59,707 bases of DNA, from the IMG/VR virus record IMGVR_UViG_3300025381_000002; one strand, written 5' to 3'. The first letter of the stretch is position 1; every line of letters starts with the position of its first letter. The translations under genes were made by a program, and so were the position numbers. The notes below the pieces were generated by a model. The model saw only the letters and a list, made by a program, of their open reading frames with translations, did not search any database and was not told the origin of the DNA. Shown here piece after piece: positions 26,938-42,654 of this stretch. Origin of the DNA: a virus.

Positions 26938-29703
26938 TTATCCTGCTTCTTTTAATGTCCTACCAAATGCCCCCTCAGCGCCTAGTGGTATGCCAGGCAT
27001 CCATGTTGGTTCTTTGCACAGCTCCGCAATAATAAAGTCTAAGGCTTCTTGGGCTTCATCTTCAGGCACTACACAATAGCAACTATCATGGATAGTTAGG
27101 GCGATCTTATAGCGCTTGGTGATTCTCACCATCGCTTCCCCCATTATACACCTTGCTAAAGCCTGTATGGTATTTTGCACGGTTTTTGGGCCGTATATTC
27201 TACGGCGCGAACCTCTATGGCTAGCGTACGTCCACTCCGTGCCTGCCTCGGTGCGTATTTCTTTTAAATCAGGATATTTTAAATAGAGTCCTGACGGTAA
27301 CAACACGCCCCTCCTGCCCGCTACAGGTAAGTTAATCGTGCCAAAGGTTGCCGCTACATTGTCACGCATATCTTTTAATACTTGGCCGCCCTTAGCCCAA
27401 GTATTTTTAACCTCGCTAAACTCTTCCCTGTATAAGTCTACAATGCGTTTTGCTTCTGCTGCTCCTATATCTGTGCCCGACATAGCCCTAATAGACTCTC
27501 TTAACTTAACCGCCCCTGTACCAAAGCCAAGCCCAAGAACACAATTTAGGACTAGCACATTTCCAGCGGTGAATCGTTTTCTAGGCCCTGCGTCTAATAT
27601 GTCATAGACTCTAGCCTTGCTTTTAGCACTTTCCAATTTTTGCGCTTGTTGTGCACTGACTCCCATGCTTGTTGTATTATGTCTTCCCCTGTCAACCCTA
27701 AACGCACATACTTTCGAACCGTGGACATTTGAGTGTGGGGGTTTTCGTTCCATAGCGGGGCTAGAATTAACGCACCTTTCCAATCCACAAACACAGTATT
27801 TCGTCTGTTTTGTATTTGCTGCTGCCGATTTGCTAAACGCAAATTTGTTTTTGTATATCCTTTGTTGTTGTCCACTCTGTCTATTTCTACCCCCTTGTAG
27901 TCTTTGTGGGGTAAATGTTTTTCTACCCATAGAATAAACTCCATTCGGGAGGCAAACTCGCAGTATATCCCCCGCCCTCCATAATTCGGGTAGTTCCTGT
28001 TTTTGGGGTTTTGGCATCGGGCTATAATGGCATCGTACCTTCGACCTAAAGTTTCTGAGTGTTTTGATTTTGTTTGGGAGCATGATTGGCACCCTTTTGT
28101 CTTCCCCCGAGTAAGAGAAGACTTGTTTATCCATTTCTCCATTCCACATTGAGTACATTTTACGTACACCTAGATGCTCTTTCCTTGGCGGGTTATTTTG
28201 TCTGAAATAATCTGCACTAACCCGTATTGCCCGCCCACTAGCTCCTGTTCTAATAAGGGTTTCCATTCTGGATGCTGCGACCCCGAAAGGAATCGGCCCT
28301 TGCTCTGTGAATACACCGTGGTCTTCGGTAGCGGTGAGCCCATTGTAAGTGATGACATTTTTTTCCCCTTGGTAAATTACCCCTTTATGAGACACCCATT
28401 CTACCCCGTCCCATACCCTATCTTCAAGAGTTACTTTTTCTATAGCCTTTTCACCATGACTAGTTAACACTAATGTGCCCTCGGCAATGCAGGTTTTTCC
28501 TACAAAGCGTTGGTCTTTTGTTACTTCATCATAGGGTGCTTTAAATGCAGATGCAGCAAAGTCTTTATACAGGTCTTTACCTTCAGCAATAATCTTAAGC
28601 TTATCGAGCTGTCCTGAAAAATATAAACTCACTCTTAGCTCTATATTGCTTAAGTCAGCACCCACTATAACGTGCCCTTCTGGGGCTTGTATAGCTGATT
28701 TAATAGGTGATGTTCTAGGGATGTTCTGCATATTAAATGATACCCCACTCCACCTCCCCGATACATCCGCACCATAGTATTTAAGCGGTATAGGCAGGTA
28801 TCTATTTGTATGAGCAATCTCTATAAAAGTTTGGGTGCGGGTCTCTTCTATAGTAGATTTAGTGCCTAGTCTAGCCGCAACAATAGCTTGAACATCAAAG
28901 TCTGGGTAGTCTAATAATGCTTTCATATCCTCGTCAGTCTTAGCAAAGGCGTATGTTTCCTTACCCGTTGTGGGGCTTATCTTCATAGGTGGTACTACCC
29001 CATGCGATCTTAATACATCAGCGAATTTAGGATTAGACATTAAGTCCTCTTTAGCCATGCCACTAGCTGCCAGTAAATCTTCTTTGCGCCTTTTGGTATG
29101 GTGCAAGTGATCCTCTAGCGTAGGTAGGTCTAGGACAAAACTAGGCTCTGTGTGCATACGAATAGTCATATCAATGAGCTTTATCTCAATCCTATTAAAG
29201 TGTAGGGCTAAGTGGTTAAATAGTCCGTGAGTCAACTCTACATCGTTTATGCAATACTGGCCGTACTTAGCTAGTTCTTCTTCGCTAAAGTCTACTCGCC
29301 TAACCCCCATAGCACTGACTACTTCAGTGCCTTTCTGCCCTAACTCGTAATGCTCCGCTAGTTTGGCAAGTGACCCCCCTACTTCTGTGCCATGTACTGC
29401 CCTAGCCATAGACAAAGTGTCTATCCACAATTTAGGCTTTATGCCGAACTTCCACGTTAAAATAGTGGCATCGAATAAAGTGTTGTGGGCATACACCCAA
29501 GAATTTTCCCAATCAAACTGGGCTAACCATTTACTAGTCTCCTCCATTGTCCCGCTGAACCATTCAGCAGGGGCTTCATTTACTTTTACTGCTACTCCGA
29601 TAACCTCGAAGAGTGGGTGATCTATGTACTCTTGGGTACTTATTTTTGAGAGACTGTACTTTTTGTCGTAATAGGTCTCAAGGTCGACACCGATAATATC
29701 CAT
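26938..29703 (-). CDS. Family-A DNA polymerase precursor (605-aa polymerase plus 316-aa intein)
   Basis: Exo motifs DLET, NTLFDATIL and YCINDVELT. Pol motif A is GADLSNIELRV, motif B is split (RFVGKT / CVLGLGFGTG), and motif C is LTIHDSCY. Confidence 0.9.
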   Translation of the reverse strand: MDIIGVDLETYYDKKYSLSKISTQEYIDHPLFEVIGVAVKVNEAPAEWFSGTMEETSKWLAQFDWENSWVYAHNTLFDATILTWKFGIKPKLWIDTLSMARAVHGTEVGGSLAKLAEHYELGQKGTEVVSAMGVRRVDFSEEELAKYGQYCINDVELTHGLFNHLALHFNRIEIKLIDMTIRMHTEPSFVLDLPTLEDHLHHTKRRKEDLLAASGMAKEDLMSNPKFADVLRSHGVVPPMKISPTTGKETYAFAKTDEDMKALLDYPDFDVQAIVAARLGTKSTIEETRTQTFIEIAHTNRYLPIPLKYYGADVSGRWSGVSFNMQNIPRTSPIKSAIQAPEGHVIVGADLSNIELRVSLYFSGQLDKLKIIAEGKDLYKDFAASAFKAPYDEVTKDQRFVGKTCIAEGTLVLTSHGEKAIEKVTLEDRVWDGVEWVSHKGVIYQGEKNVITYNGLTATEDHGVFTEQGPIPFGVAASRMETLIRTGASGRAIRVSADYFRQNNPPRKEHLGVRKMYSMWNGEMDKQVFSYSGEDKRVPIMLPNKIKTLRNFRSKVRCHYSPMPKPQKQELPELWRAGDILRVCLPNGVYSMGRKTFTPQRLQGGRNRQSGQQQRIYKNKFAFSKSAAANTKQTKYCVCGLERCVNSSPAMERKPPHSNVHGSKVCAFRVDRGRHNTTSMGVSAQQAQKLESAKSKARVYDILDAGPRKRFTAGNVLVLNCVLGLGFGTGAVKLRESIRAMSGTDIGAAEAKRIVDLYREEFSEVKNTWAKGGQVLKDMRDNVAATFGTINLPVAGRRGVLLPSGLYLKYPDLKEIRTEAGTEWTYASHRGSRRRIYGPKTVQNTIQALARCIMGEAMVRITKRYKIALTIHDSCYCVVPEDEAQEALDFIIAELCKEPTWMPGIPLGAEGAFGRTLKEAG
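27544..28491 (-). mobile_element. Intein inserted in Pol A motif B
   Basis: Starts with Cys (CIAEGTLVLTSHG), has a TxxH block (LTATEDHGVFT), and ends RVYDILDAGPRKRFTAGNVLVLN followed by Cys+1. It is 948 nt (316 codons), and removing it restores motif B. Confidence 0.8.
27594..28169 (-). CDS. HNH_3/AP2-associated-type homing endonuclease-like gene nested out of frame inside the polymerase intein
   Basis: Its frame is offset by one nucleotide from the polymerase frame. TAG lies directly upstream, then a GTG start 7 nt after AAGGAAAGAG. The translation has a CTQCG...CQSC zinc ribbon, YGGRGI, and IDRVDNNKGYTKTNLRLANRQQQIQNRR. Confidence 0.7.
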   Translation of the reverse strand: MYVKCTQCGMEKWINKSSLTRGKTKGCQSCSQTKSKHSETLGRRYDAIIARCQNPKNRNYPNYGGRGIYCEFASRMEFILWVEKHLPHKDYKGVEIDRVDNNKGYTKTNLRLANRQQQIQNRRNTVFVDWKGALILAPLWNENPHTQMSTVRKYVRLGLTGEDIIQQAWESVHNKRKNWKVLKARLESMTY

Positions 29704-38802: not shown

Positions 38803-38918
38803 TGCAGTGCATATATCATCATACGAGTGTTTACAAGTCATGCGTGGAGCGTTCTATCATGCGCTAATATCTTTTTTTAGCCTAATAACCACGCTTTTTG
38901 TGTAGTCTTTAACAACTT

Positions 38919-38990
38919 GCATCACACTTGCTTTGCATCACACTTGCTTTGCATCACACTTGCTTTGCATCACACTTGCTTTGCATCACT
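38919..38990. repeat. 16-bp tandem repeat (gcatcacacttgcttt) x4.5
   Basis: Four exact copies at 38919-38982 plus a partial copy. Confidence 0.95.
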
Positions 38991-39125
38991 CAAAAACAAA
39001 AAACGCGATTTAAGACACGATAATATAAAACAGGTAGGTCAGCATAGCTCTAAGCGTAATCGAGGCGTAAAGATAGTGCTTGCTTGCTCTAAGCGTATAG
39101 TCTGCCTTGCTTGCCTGCTTGCTCT

Positions 39126-39171
39126 ATCAAATCAAATCAAATCAAATAAAATCAAATCAAATAAAATCAAA
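39126..39171. repeat. Pentanucleotide (atcaa/ataaa) tract
   Basis: atcaaatcaaatcaaatcaaataaaatcaaatcaaataaaatcaaa. Confidence 0.9.
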
Positions 39172-39180
39172 CACTTAGAG

Positions 39181-39259
39181 CAAAGCGGGCAAAGCGGGCA
39201 AAGCGGGCAAAGCGGGCAAAGCGGGCAAAGCGGGCAAAGCGGGCAAAGCGGGCAAAGCG
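39181..39259. repeat. 9-bp tandem repeat (caaagcggg) x8 plus a partial copy, followed by a C-rich tract
   Basis: Eight exact units at 39181-39252, then caaagcgc and acccccacccccc. Confidence 0.95.
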
Positions 39260-39327
39260 CACCCCCACCCCCCTAAAATCTCAAGTAGGAGTCCCTGCCT
39301 AGCCTATACACTGTTTTACTCACTAAA

Positions 39328-39564: not shown

Positions 39565-39599
39565 CTGAAGGTCACCGTAAGCTACCTGTTTTGCACACC

Positions 39600-40124
39600 A
39601 TGACAAAACGCAAAAATAATCTTTTTGAAGATTTCTCTGTTCCACTAGGGATGCCTAGTGCTGATCCGCAAAAAGTTTTTGCCGATATAAATTTCCAAGC
39701 TCAAAACCATCCTGACGATATACCACTGACCCCAACTCAAGAAGATAAAACTTGGGCTGAACAAACAGTGCAGACAGGAACTAAAACCACACCAGCGCCA
39801 TCTCTCGCTGCTGAAAAATACTTAAAGTCTCATTTTAGCCAGTACAACTTTGACCTGCCCACTACTCAAGGACAATGGCAAAACTTTGTGCTTACTAAGC
39901 TTGTAGGACAAGCAAATGATCCTGATCCAAAAATAAGTAAGCCCGCTTTAGACACGCTAGCTAAAACAAGTACCGTTGGATTAATGGTAGAGCGCACAGA
40001 GTTAAGCATTACCCACAAATCAAGTGACGAGTTAGAAAAAACCTTGCGTCAGGCTATGCAGCGCTATTTAAATAAATCTTCAAGTAATGAAAGGGACATA
40101 GAAGGGGAAGTTATCCGTGCTTGA
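39600..40124 (+). CDS. Candidate small terminase subunit
   Basis: Called by position only: it is the first late gene and overlaps the TerL start. I prefer the ATG at 39600; the ORF track starts at a TTG at 39591. Confidence 0.35.
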   Translation: MTKRKNNLFEDFSVPLGMPSADPQKVFADINFQAQNHPDDIPLTPTQEDKTWAEQTVQTGTKTTPAPSLAAEKYLKSHFSQYNFDLPTTQGQWQNFVLTKLVGQANDPDPKISKPALDTLAKTSTVGLMVERTELSITHKSSDELEKTLRQAMQRYLNKSSSNERDIEGEVIRA

Positions 40125-42654
40125 AGACTTTATACCTGAAGATTTTGATGCCTTAATAGCTGCTGCACCTATGGCAGAGAAAGCGGCGTTGCTCAATGTT
40201 ATACAGGAGCTGAATACCCGAAAGGAGCGAGAACGCTCTAAAGTAGATTTTTTGGCTTTTGTAAATTCAGTATGGCCTGAGTTTATTAGTGGGGCGCACC
40301 ATAAGAGGATAGCTAAATTATTTGAAGCAGTTGCTCGTGGTGAGAAGAAAAGGGTTATTATTAACTTAGGGCCGAGGCACGCAGTGCAGGTAGATGAACC
40401 CATACCTACTCCTAAAGGGTGGACTACAATGAAAGACCTTCAAGTAGGGGACTTAGTATTTGGGTCTGATGGAGCGCCCACACGGGTTATAGGAAAATCT
40501 GAAGTGTTTCATAATAGAGAGCTTTATCGCGTGACTACTGATGATGGACATAGTTTAGATGTTGATGGGGAGCATTTATGGACTGTGCGTATGAAGCGAG
40601 GCACCGATGTATTTAGAGACTACACGACTGAACAACTGTGGTTGCGCCAACAAGGGGTAAGAGTAAAGGCGAGTAGAGGGGGAGGAACGCATATACTACC
40701 TGGAAAGTTAACGGCAAAGGTGCGACTACCTATGCTTCCTACGATGCCTATTGCGGCACATAGTACGAAAGACCTGCCTATAGACCCCTATGTATTGGGT
40801 GTTTGGTTAGGAGATGGTGCTTCGGCACAAGGGCACATAACAAGCCATGATAAAGATGCCGTTTACATTCGTGCAGAGTTTGATAGTAGGGGTTATAAAA
40901 CCACAGATCAAAAAACAAAATATTTATTTAGTACCCTAGGGTTAAAAACAAAACTTAGGGACTTAGGGGTATTAAATAACAAACATATTCCAGCAGACTA
41001 TTTATCTGCAAACCCTGAGCAACGTAGAGACTTGTTAAAAGGGTTGATGGACTCCGATGGGAATGTATCTAAAAAAGGGCAATGCTTTTTCTCGCAAAAA
41101 AGTTTAGCATTTATAACTCAAGTACGAGAGTTACTATGTAGCTTGGGGATTAAAAATAGCCTACAGACCACAGAGGCCAAAATATATAATAAAAGTTATG
41201 GGTTGACCCACCGCCTGTCTTTTTATGCTTCTGATATTGCTAATTTACCCAGAAAAGAAGCGCGTACATTAAAAACACCCCCAGCTTTTGGGCGCTATAT
41301 ACAGGTTGAAAAGCTAAACACCGTAGGCGATGTACAGTGTATTAAAGTTTGTAGAGAAGATGGGCTGTTTCTAGCGGGCAAAGGGTATCTAACTACGCAC
41401 AACACTAAGTCTGAATTTGCTTCTTACCTACTTCCAGCGTGGTTCTTAGGGCAGTTTCCTAAGAAAAAAGTTATGCAGATAAGTAATACAGGAGAGTTAG
41501 CTGAAGGCTTTGGTCGTAAGGTGCGTAACTTAGTAGACTCTGATGAATATAGACGCATTTTTCCAGATGTTAAACTTCGCACAGATTCTAAAGCGGCAGG
41601 ACGATGGAATACTAACCACCAAGGGGATTATTTTGCTGCTGGTGTTGGGGGTACTGTAACGGGGCGAGGAGCTGATTTGCTTATTATTGATGACCCTCAT
41701 TCTGAAAACGATGCCGTTATAGCGCAGTATAACCCTGAAATTTACGATAAAGTGTTTAGTTGGTATTCGTCAGGGCCAAGGCAGCGGCTACAACCTGGGG
41801 GGGCTATAATTATCGTTATGACTCGATGGAGTCTCGCGGATTTAACGGGGCAAATATTAGATCACTCTGCTAAAAATGGTGGGGATCAATGGGAAGTGGT
41901 GGAGTTTCCTGCAATAATGCCAAGTGGTAGACCGCTATGGCCTGAATTTTGGAGTGTAGAAGAGCTAGAAGCTGTCAAAGCTGAAATTCCAGTAGGTAAA
42001 TGGCAAGCTCAGTATCAACAACAACCCACATCGGAAGTCACAGCGATTATTAAACGTGAGTGGTGGCAAAAATGGCCTAAAAAAGACCCTCCACCCTGTG
42101 ACTATGTACTTATGTCCATGGATACAGCGTTTGAAAAGAAAACAAGTGCTGATTATAGTGCCATTGTTATCTTTGGGGTTTGGAGTAACCCAGAAGATGG
42201 AGATCAACCTAACTTAATTTTATTGGAGGCATGGCGGGATAGGCTTGAGTTTCCTGATTTAAAAATTAAAACGCTAGAGATGTACGAAGAATGGCAACCT
42301 GATGGGATAATAATAGAGAAAAAAGCATCTGGAGCGCCCCTTATATATGAGCTTAGACGCATGGGCATACCTGCACAGGAGTTTACTCCCTCTCGTGGAC
42401 AGGATAAAATTTCTAGGCTTAACGCTATATCGGATATATTTGCTTCAGGTAAAGTATGGACTCCTGCTACACGTTGGGCAGACGAGGTTATTAATGAGGT
42501 AGCGTCCTTTCCTTCTGGTCGTAACGATGATTTTGTTGACGCTGTCAGTTTAGCATTATCTAGGTTTCGTTCTGGGGGGCTTATTAGTTCTGCTAAAGAT
42601 AAAGATATGGATGACAACCTTTGGTCATATAGAAGAAAGGCCAATTACTACTAA
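40117..42654 (+). CDS. terL: Terminase large subunit precursor (504-aa TerL plus 341-aa intein)
   Basis: The P-loop region is INLGPRH / TKSEFASYLLPAWFLGQFP, and Walker B is LLIIDDPHSEND. Nuclease motifs are MSMDTAFEKKTSADYSAIV and NDDFVDAVSLAL. Confidence 0.9.
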   Translation: MLEDFIPEDFDALIAAAPMAEKAALLNVIQELNTRKERERSKVDFLAFVNSVWPEFISGAHHKRIAKLFEAVARGEKKRVIINLGPRHAVQVDEPIPTPKGWTTMKDLQVGDLVFGSDGAPTRVIGKSEVFHNRELYRVTTDDGHSLDVDGEHLWTVRMKRGTDVFRDYTTEQLWLRQQGVRVKASRGGGTHILPGKLTAKVRLPMLPTMPIAAHSTKDLPIDPYVLGVWLGDGASAQGHITSHDKDAVYIRAEFDSRGYKTTDQKTKYLFSTLGLKTKLRDLGVLNNKHIPADYLSANPEQRRDLLKGLMDSDGNVSKKGQCFFSQKSLAFITQVRELLCSLGIKNSLQTTEAKIYNKSYGLTHRLSFYASDIANLPRKEARTLKTPPAFGRYIQVEKLNTVGDVQCIKVCREDGLFLAGKGYLTTHNTKSEFASYLLPAWFLGQFPKKKVMQISNTGELAEGFGRKVRNLVDSDEYRRIFPDVKLRTDSKAAGRWNTNHQGDYFAAGVGGTVTGRGADLLIIDDPHSENDAVIAQYNPEIYDKVFSWYSSGPRQRLQPGGAIIIVMTRWSLADLTGQILDHSAKNGGDQWEVVEFPAIMPSGRPLWPEFWSVEELEAVKAEIPVGKWQAQYQQQPTSEVTAIIKREWWQKWPKKDPPPCDYVLMSMDTAFEKKTSADYSAIVIFGVWSNPEDGDQPNLILLEAWRDRLEFPDLKIKTLEMYEEWQPDGIIIEKKASGAPLIYELRRMGIPAQEFTPSRGQDKISRLNAISDIFASGKVWTPATRWADEVINEVASFPSGRNDDFVDAVSLALSRFRSGGLISSAKDKDMDDNLWSYRRKANYY
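40381..41403 (+). mobile_element. LAGLIDADG intein in the TerL P-loop with class-3 (W/C/T) signatures
   Basis: Starts AVQVDEPIPTPKGW, with Ala where Cys1 would be. Block B is DGEHLW, with Trp at 40579-40581. LAGLIDADG motifs are LGVWLGDGAS and LLKGLMDSDGNV. Block F is DVQCIKV, with Cys at 41338-41340. It ends YLTTHN followed by Thr+1. Confidence 0.8.

Follow-up and report, generated by a model that had tools for sequence, protein, structure and literature searches.

The terminase gene and its insertion

We have analyzed the gene for the large terminase subunit, TerL, and an insertion of 341 codons in its Walker A region, in a stretch of viral DNA of 59,707 nucleotides (nt) that represents the IMG/VR virus record IMGVR_UViG_3300025381_000002 and is referred to as the window throughout. 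Positions are those of the window, and features lie on its plus strand unless noted otherwise. In the list of open reading frames (ORFs) the gene appears as a continuous frame at 40117..42654, with a GTG start and the stop codon included, that encodes a precursor of 845 amino acids (aa), and the mature TerL after splicing is predicted to comprise 504 aa. As judged from alignments, the N-extein (aa 1-88, 40117..40380) ends with the first half of a deviant Walker A motif, ...IINLGPRH, whose PRH residues are invariant in the alignment of the TerL family. The following in-frame insertion of 1023 nt (40381..41403) comprises 341 aa from Ala1 to Asn341, corresponding to ORF residues 89-429. It starts with AVQVDEPIPTPKGW and ends with GYLTTHN, and its flanks read ...RVIINLGPRH before and TKSEFASYLLPAWFLG... 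after the insertion. The C-extein (41404..42654) opens with TKSEF, the remainder of Walker A, and continues with the Walker B motif LLIIDDPH (41677-41706) and a Terminase_6C nuclease domain. In G+C content the insertion (0.423) is close to the exteins (0.427).

The C-terminal part of the protein matches Terminase_6C and TIGR01630, the former with E=8e-9 on the spliced sequence, and in spliced TerL the Walker A and Walker B residues, PRHTKS and IIDDPH, are conserved with respect to homologues. The intein-free sequence of 504 aa was compared with the annotated TerLs of phage 023Pt_psg01, pelagiphages HTVC027P and HTVC023P, phage DSL-LC04 and Synechococcus phage MinM2, and showed 48-56% identity over at least 90% of the length in tblastn and 46-52% in a MAFFT alignment. 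When 50,697 phage records were searched by megablast with the TerL gene as query, no match was obtained, so that the phage itself is absent from this collection.

The limits of the insertion follow from alleles in which the site is empty. For five TerLs that lack an intein and stem from cultured or assembled phages, the alignment runs without a gap across the insertion point, reading IIN-MPPRH-[T/S]KSE, and the motif PRH[T/S]KS[E/L/K] is uninterrupted in about 115 of 119 TerL cluster representatives with an identity of at least 64%. An interruption at PRH↓TKS, the arrow marking the point of insertion, is found in only 2 of the approximately 119 TerL clusters, the window's own and P0178. The closest TerL relatives, retrieved with 85% identity from a large protein collection, are intein-less and exactly 504 aa long. 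At the DNA level, two intein-less alleles of 85% identity (contigs L011 and L013) read ...GGCA(C/T)↓AC(T/C)AAGTCTGA... where the window has 1023 extra nucleotides; their empty site is GGGCCTAGGCAT↓ACCAAGTCTGAGTTTGC, or ...GGCAY↓ACYAAGTCTGA... in short form. As the residues at the two junctions differ, with H↓A on the N-terminal and N↓T on the C-terminal side, the insertion cannot be slid, and the limits of the predicted intein, His-1↓Ala1 ... Thr339-His340-Asn341↓Thr+1, are exact.

An initial annotation, made from the sequence of the window, had described a 341-codon insertion in Walker A at 40381-41403, with the reservation that its N-terminal boundary might be off by one or two residues. The intein-less alleles confirm the insertion, and at both the protein and the DNA level they fix this boundary exactly, so that the reservation can be dropped. 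An upstream Cys or Ser as the true N-terminus, the case that the annotation had named as speaking against itself, was considered and rejected, as KKRVIINLGPRH contains neither residue and the junction is set by the alleles without an intein. Thr+1, the first residue of the C-extein (41404..41406), is native to TerL, since the corresponding residue is a Thr or Ser in intein-less homologues. It takes the position of the Gly in the Walker A motif GK[ST], because a related TerL fragment reads PPRHGK-intein-SE.

Class 3 signature and conservation

Class 3 inteins are defined by a non-nucleophilic residue 1 that co-varies with a Trp(B:12)-Cys(F:4)-Thr(G:5) triplet, abbreviated WCT, and with a Ser or Thr at position +1 (Tori et al. 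2010, PMC2807308). Their block F Cys is absolutely required, a branched thioester forms at block F, and N-terminal cleavage proceeds without the nucleophiles of positions 1 and +1 (PMC2807308). In the window intein position 1 (block A:1, codon GCA, 40381..40383) is an Ala, a non-nucleophilic residue in place of Cys, Ser or Thr. Block B, DVDGEHLWTV, is located at 40558..40587 and contains His65 (B:10, 40573-40575) and Trp67 (B:12, 40579-40581). Block F, GDVQCIKV, at 41326..41349 holds Cys320 (F:4, 41338-41340), the predicted initiating nucleophile, and block G, GYLTTHN, at 41383..41403 provides Thr339 (G:5), the penultimate His340 and the terminal Asn341 (THN codons 41395-41403), with Thr+1 to follow. 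The complete triplet of Trp67, Cys320 and Thr339 aligns with W67, C320 and T339 of MP-Be, the intein of mycobacteriophage Bethlehem. On re-reading, the motifs and codon positions given in the initial annotation (Ala1, DGEHLW, DVQCIKV, TTHN, Thr+1 and both LAGLIDADG motifs) were all correct, and its assignment to class 3 is borne out by the full set of sequence features of the class together with full-length homology to validated class 3 inteins.

The conservation of these residues was assessed in an alignment of 103 sequences, the window intein and 102 full-length homologous inteins hosted by dCTP deaminases, PD-(D/E)XK/Cas4-like nucleases, DnaB-type helicases and terminases. His65, Trp67 and Cys320 are each present in all 103 inteins, and Thr339, His340 and Asn341 in 101 each. 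Position 1 is occupied by Ala in 90 cases, by Gly in 11 and by Ser in 2, and the +1 residue is, with the exception of one sequence, a Ser (87) or a Thr (14). Of 91 well-conserved positions, 14 differ from the consensus of the family in the window intein, all of them non-catalytic.

Relationship to characterized inteins

The profile of the 102 homologous inteins matches the window intein with E=3e-102, and full-length relatives of the insertion were found in 806 phage records and in 481 proteins of the metagenome collection. With MP-Be the similarity extends from end to end (BLASTP E=9e-42, 28% identity). Both inteins have 341 aa, the residues His65, Trp67, Cys320, Thr339, His340, Asn341 and Thr+1 bear the same numbers, an in-frame LAGLIDADG endonuclease is present and the host is the ATPase domain of a TerL. 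MP-Be differs from the window intein in that it starts with Pro1 instead of Ala1 and resides in an actinophage rather than in an aquatic, pelagiphage-like phage. Its host is of the TerL_nuclease/Terminase_1 type and not of the Terminase_6C type, and its insertion site, SQDQ↓TKNT, was placed by Kelley et al. 2016 in a poorly conserved helix and not in the Walker A loop. For MP-Be, H65, W67, C320 and N341 were experimentally found to be required for splicing, Cys320 absolutely so (PMC2807308), and both splicing and endonuclease activity were demonstrated for TerL inteins including the one from Bethlehem, whose site is named TerL1-c (Kelley et al. 2016). Homology of the window site with the Bethlehem site was considered and dropped, as a comparison of TerL profiles gave no significant alignment and the site described by Kelley et al. 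lies outside the P-loop.

The MP-Be intein corresponds to residues 141-481 of gp11 in AY500153 (L010:7260-9971), a product annotated as 'hypothetical protein'. As its gene immediately precedes the portal gene and the protein contains a TerL_nuclease domain, gp11 is the terminase large subunit and not DnaB. The initial annotation had cited Bethlehem DnaB as an example of class 3; the intein is indeed the class 3 prototype, but its host gene is not DnaB. Note that the annotated DnaB-like helicase of Bethlehem, gp62, does not contain an intein. The more general statement of the same annotation, that phage terminases serve as intein hosts, is well documented for class 3 LAGLIDADG inteins in TerL, including its P-loop.

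The best sequence matches in the PDB are the class 3 DnaB1 inteins 6BS8, 6RIX and 6RIY (E=9e-18 to 7e-16). These mini-inteins, Msm DnaBi1 (6BS8) and Mch DnaB1 (6RIX/6RIY), share 34-39% identity with the window intein over the N-terminal splicing region as well as the WCT catalytic arrangement and the insertion into a P-loop, but they are devoid of an endonuclease domain and their host protein is DnaB. In Msm DnaBi1, Cys48 is a redox partner of the catalytic Cys and needed for activity. A disulfide redox switch of this kind was rejected for the window intein, where the partner position 48 is a Leu.

Predicted structure and endonuclease domain

An AlphaFold model of the intein, based on an alignment of 45 sequences, reached a mean predicted local distance difference test (pLDDT) score of 94.8 and a predicted template modelling (pTM) score of 0.92. 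As evidenced by Foldseek, the full-length model resembles PI-SceI and other inteins that contain a LAGLIDADG domain, with E-values down to 5e-20 and a template modelling (TM) score of 0.72. The splicing (HINT) part on its own matched class 3 mycobacterial mini-inteins (target-normalised TM score 0.80-0.84, probability 1.00), and the endonuclease domain also matched I-DmoI. With PI-SceI, the yeast VMA1 intein, and with the archaeal VMA and PI-PfuI inteins the window intein has in common the two-domain layout of HINT and LAGLIDADG parts, and no other full-length structural matches were better (TM score 0.67-0.72). In contrast, these are class 1 inteins, with Cys1 and an Asp at F:4, and their sequence identity is only about 17%.

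The homing-endonuclease domain extends approximately over intein aa 128-300 (40762..41280), limits that were taken from the secondary structure of the model. LAGLIDADG motif 1, LGVWLGDGAS, with Asp145 is found at 40795-40824, the block D Lys201 at 40981-40983 and LAGLIDADG motif 2, LLKGLMDSDGNV, with Asp224 and Asp226 at 41032-41067. In the alignment used for the model D145, G146, K201, D224, D226 and G227 are invariant. Pfam recognizes only this central endonuclease in the insertion, through LAGLIDADG_3 (E=8e-9) and Hom_end (E=6e-5), both above the cut-offs. The insertion thus includes a LAGLIDADG domain with both motifs and a predicted fold of the endonuclease type.

Insertion sites in the TerL family

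Inteins are present in 20 of 120 cluster representatives of the TerL family. While the class 3 site PRH↓TKS is occupied in the window's own cluster and in P0178, inteins of its TerL relatives are inserted at no fewer than five other positions. Class 1 inteins were located at DYYA↓C...N↓CGVG (P0229), GADL↓C...N↓CIIDD (P0205), FVDA↓C...N↓CTLAL (P0124) and IIVM↓C...N↓TRW, the commonest site, and P0125 is also among the intein-bearing relatives. In the window the other sites are empty, namely those near 41677-41706 (Walker B), at 41806-41829 (IIVM↓TRW) and at 42517-42543 (FVDA). These comparisons mark the TerL family as a hotspot for inteins.

Unannotated alleles from metagenomes that share the insertion site of the window intein (P0001 on contig L008, P0178 on L012 and the fragments P0002-P0004 and P0015) belong to the same TerL family and show the same PRH↓TKSE junctions. 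With 341-344 aa and the same signature they have diverged to 57-65% intein identity, and P0001-P0004 and P0178 retain all signature residues. The TerL at L008:32-3283 combines a same-site class 3 intein of 62% identity with a second, class 1 intein at IIVM↓TRW, and it contains an in-frame stop between the two (KVRN-stop-VGSEQ), for which an assembly error or a pseudogene is possible. In more distant TerLs, class 3 inteins are located at DDPH↓SE in Walker B (P0005, P0009) and at PPRHGK↓SE in a classic Walker A motif (P0006). With 42-46% identity, 42-44% being given for DDPH↓SE and 45% for PPRHGK↓SE, these are the nearest non-allelic relatives of the window intein.

Class 3 LAGLIDADG inteins at the TerL site GK↓S/T are found in Synechococcus phage B23, in Escherichia Krischvirus ELT3 and ECD7 and in Gordonia phage YungMoney. 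Their full-length identity with the window intein is 33-36%, and they share Ala1, the WCT triplet, a Ser or Thr at +1 and the location in the TerL P-loop. Their insertion site, however, lies between Lys and Ser or Thr (e.g. LSRQLGK↓A...HN↓TT), whereas PRH↓TKS lies two residues upstream of GK↓S/T, between a His and the Thr found in place of the Walker Gly. The window intein also differs from them in its terminase family and in its ecological setting. The -1 residue is accordingly a His in the window, but a Lys in 98 of the 103 aligned inteins. TerL1-a of mycobacteriophages uses the same K↓T site as the inteins of the B23 type, and the P-loop TerL inteins TerL1-a and TerL1-b have been described before (Kelley et al. 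2016). In a survey from 2025 (bioRxiv 10.1101/2025.01.02.630785), 287 class 3 inteins were found in actinophages, almost all of them in TerL and Cas4 exonucleases.

These observations raise the question whether, in phages other than actinophages, an intein lineage has moved from one insertion site to another within a single terminase family and is still homing among co-circulating aquatic phages. We consider this scenario possible, but rather doubtful. The H↓TKSE site is available only because this TerL family has a Thr or Ser at the position of the usual Walker A Gly. If the scenario were true, the threefold deficit in synonymous divergence of the intein with respect to the exteins, described below, would reflect homing that still takes place among co-circulating aquatic phages.

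Proposed splicing mechanism and alternative explanations

With a probability of roughly 0.88, the Walker A loop of this phage TerL is interrupted, between His88 and the Thr of PRH↓TKSE, by a class 3 intein that is bifunctional. Its splicing reaction, as well as the activity and homing of its endonuclease, we infer by analogy, and the mechanism is modelled on the Bethlehem prototype. The TerL precursor would be unable to bind ATP until the intein is excised. Cys320, activated by its surroundings of His65, Trp67 and Thr339, would attack the bond between His(-1) and Ala1 to yield a thioester-linked branched intermediate, from which the N-extein would be moved to the hydroxyl group of Thr+1. Cyclisation of Asn341 would then free the intein, and an O-to-N acyl shift would produce the TerL of 504 aa with the sequence ...GPRH-TKSEF.... 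In a co-infection the LAGLIDADG domain most likely cleaves an intein-less allele (the empty site given above), whereupon the element would be copied. The identical TerL precursor was found on at least five contigs, several of them of about 58 kb or more and from different samples, and its 90% cluster has 61 members. Given this recurrence, the lineage propagates and must make active TerL, and the phage would need splicing of the precursor in order to package its DNA.

To assess selection we compared the insertion (40381-41403) with a 98%-identical allele, L014:765-1787, a comparison that with 19 differences in the intein is suggestive only. Synonymous divergence (dS) is 0.035 in the intein versus 0.105 in the exteins (Fisher p=0.004), while the total numbers of nucleotide differences are not significantly different between the two. 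The ratio of non-synonymous to synonymous divergence (dN/dS) is 0.40 for the intein, 0.06 for the exteins and 0.19 for the endonuclease part. The low dS of the intein fits recent homing and could reflect its transfer between lineages, although counts are small.

The alternative that survives best is that splicing is active, but that the LAGLIDADG endonuclease is dead and the intein is only inherited vertically within its lineage. Decay of the endonuclease is common in the life cycle of inteins, and the sparse occupation of the PRH↓TKS site, which holds an intein in just 2 of approximately 119 related TerL clusters, is in line with such a history. Nevertheless, conservation extends to both acidic LAGLIDADG residues as well as to the Lys of block D, the model of the domain is of high confidence and its dN/dS is low. 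Synonymous sites have diverged in the intein about one third as far as in the exteins on either side, which would agree with the intein having been shared more recently, through homing. An inactive endonuclease is therefore unlikely in our assessment, but has to be taken seriously.

A second alternative accepts a genuine intein with a WCT triplet, but assumes another route of splicing, in which Thr+1, for instance, would directly attack the N-terminal junction in the manner of class 2 KlbA inteins and Cys320 would have a structural role only. The mechanism of splicing cannot be read from a sequence, and class 2 KlbA inteins likewise start with an Ala (PMC2807308). Class 2 inteins, however, have a Cys at +1 and no WCT triplet, while class 3 is defined by a first residue that is not nucleophilic and co-varies with WCT and with Ser or Thr at +1. 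Moreover, Cys320 is present in all 103 aligned inteins, and the closest characterized relatives, MP-Be and Msm DnaBi1, depend on their block F Cys, so that we regard this route as highly improbable.

That the insertion is a decayed, splicing-dead relic, in a TerL pseudogene with packaging by a helper or in the contig of a defective phage, would be in line with the higher dN/dS of the intein with respect to the exteins and with the in-frame stop just downstream of the same-site allele in the TerL of contig L008, but it is the least probable explanation of all given the open frame of 845 codons with its intact catalytic residues, the strong purifying selection on the exteins, the recurrence of the same TerL protein on several large contigs from different samples and the fact that the window yielded no further TerL-like intein or ORF.

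Some observations weigh against a working class 3 intein at this site. The splicing-domain models of Pfam and NCBIfam remained below threshold (Hint E=0.086), and no intein N-terminal or C-terminal model matched, so that the class assignment rests on homologues. Grafting WCT onto a class 1 intein was insufficient for class 3 splicing (Beyer et al. 2020). The triplet alone is consequently no proof of class 3, although homology over the full length to class 3 inteins that work lessens this concern. Residue 324 is a Cys in the window intein but an Asp in MP-Be, where the D324A variant showed reduced splicing at 30 °C, indicating moderate importance, although this position varies freely across the family. 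The Leu at residue 48 replaces the Cys that is needed in Msm DnaBi1, but splicing-proficient MP-Be has a Thr in this place. Finally, the comparison with the 98%-identical allele gives a dN/dS of about 1 for the splicing part, a value derived from tiny counts of 7 non-synonymous and 2 synonymous differences.

A class-1-like intein in PolA, and genes upstream of TerL

On the minus strand, the PolA gene (26938..29703) contains an in-frame insertion of 316 aa in motif B, from nt 28491 down to 27544. Its sequence marks, GKT↓CIAEGT...TATEDH...VYDILD...VLVLN↓CVLGLGFG, with Cys1, Cys+1 and a penultimate Leu instead of His, point to a class-1-like intein, and homologous phage PolA proteins align without gaps across the spliced junction. 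No domain match was obtained for the in-frame middle of this intein. In another frame of the same strand, an ORF of 191 aa (27594-28169) that lies wholly within the intein matches HNH endonucleases in PHROGs (E=6e-26), and both frames are open across approximately 576 nt. Out-of-frame endonucleases on the same strand of inteins have been reported only for the EndoVII-like type (2025 preprint), and the HNH frame in PolA may be a further variant.

With inteins in both PolA and TerL, this phage appears to rely on protein splicing for replication as well as for packaging. The initial annotation had already proposed this double dependence, for which the intein in motif B of PolA provides support at the level of sequence. 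A second intein of the TerL type was not detected in the window with the profile of 102 homologues, and the P-loop of the primase-helicase, GVGKT, is intact.

Upstream of TerL, an ORF of 177 aa (39591-40124) overlaps the start of the gene by 8 nt. It had no match in Pfam or PHROGs, and its position suggests the small terminase subunit. A neighbor in this position is kept in related contigs, with genes of 170-174 aa in L006, L011, L012 and L013. Further upstream of the terminase region, the ORF at 38917-39276 ends in SGQ repeats (SGQSGQSGQ...), which imply a short tandem DNA repeat, in surroundings that look non-coding.

Implications

The window intein is an ordinary addition to a well-described intein family, whose only unusual feature is an insertion point two residues upstream of GK↓S/T, and it leaves the current understanding of inteins unchanged. 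For annotation, the protein of 845 aa listed as TerL would be the precursor of a 504-aa product, and the standard Pfam and NCBIfam splicing models miss its intein. As a natural class 3 intein with a Ser or Thr at +1, it is possibly a further scaffold for protein engineering. It adds a well-supported candidate from an uncultured aquatic phage, related to the pelagiphages HTVC023P and HTVC027P, to a family that so far has mostly been studied in actinobacteria and their phages. Its position shows that an intein can enter the Walker A loop two residues before the customary point where the extein supplies a Thr.

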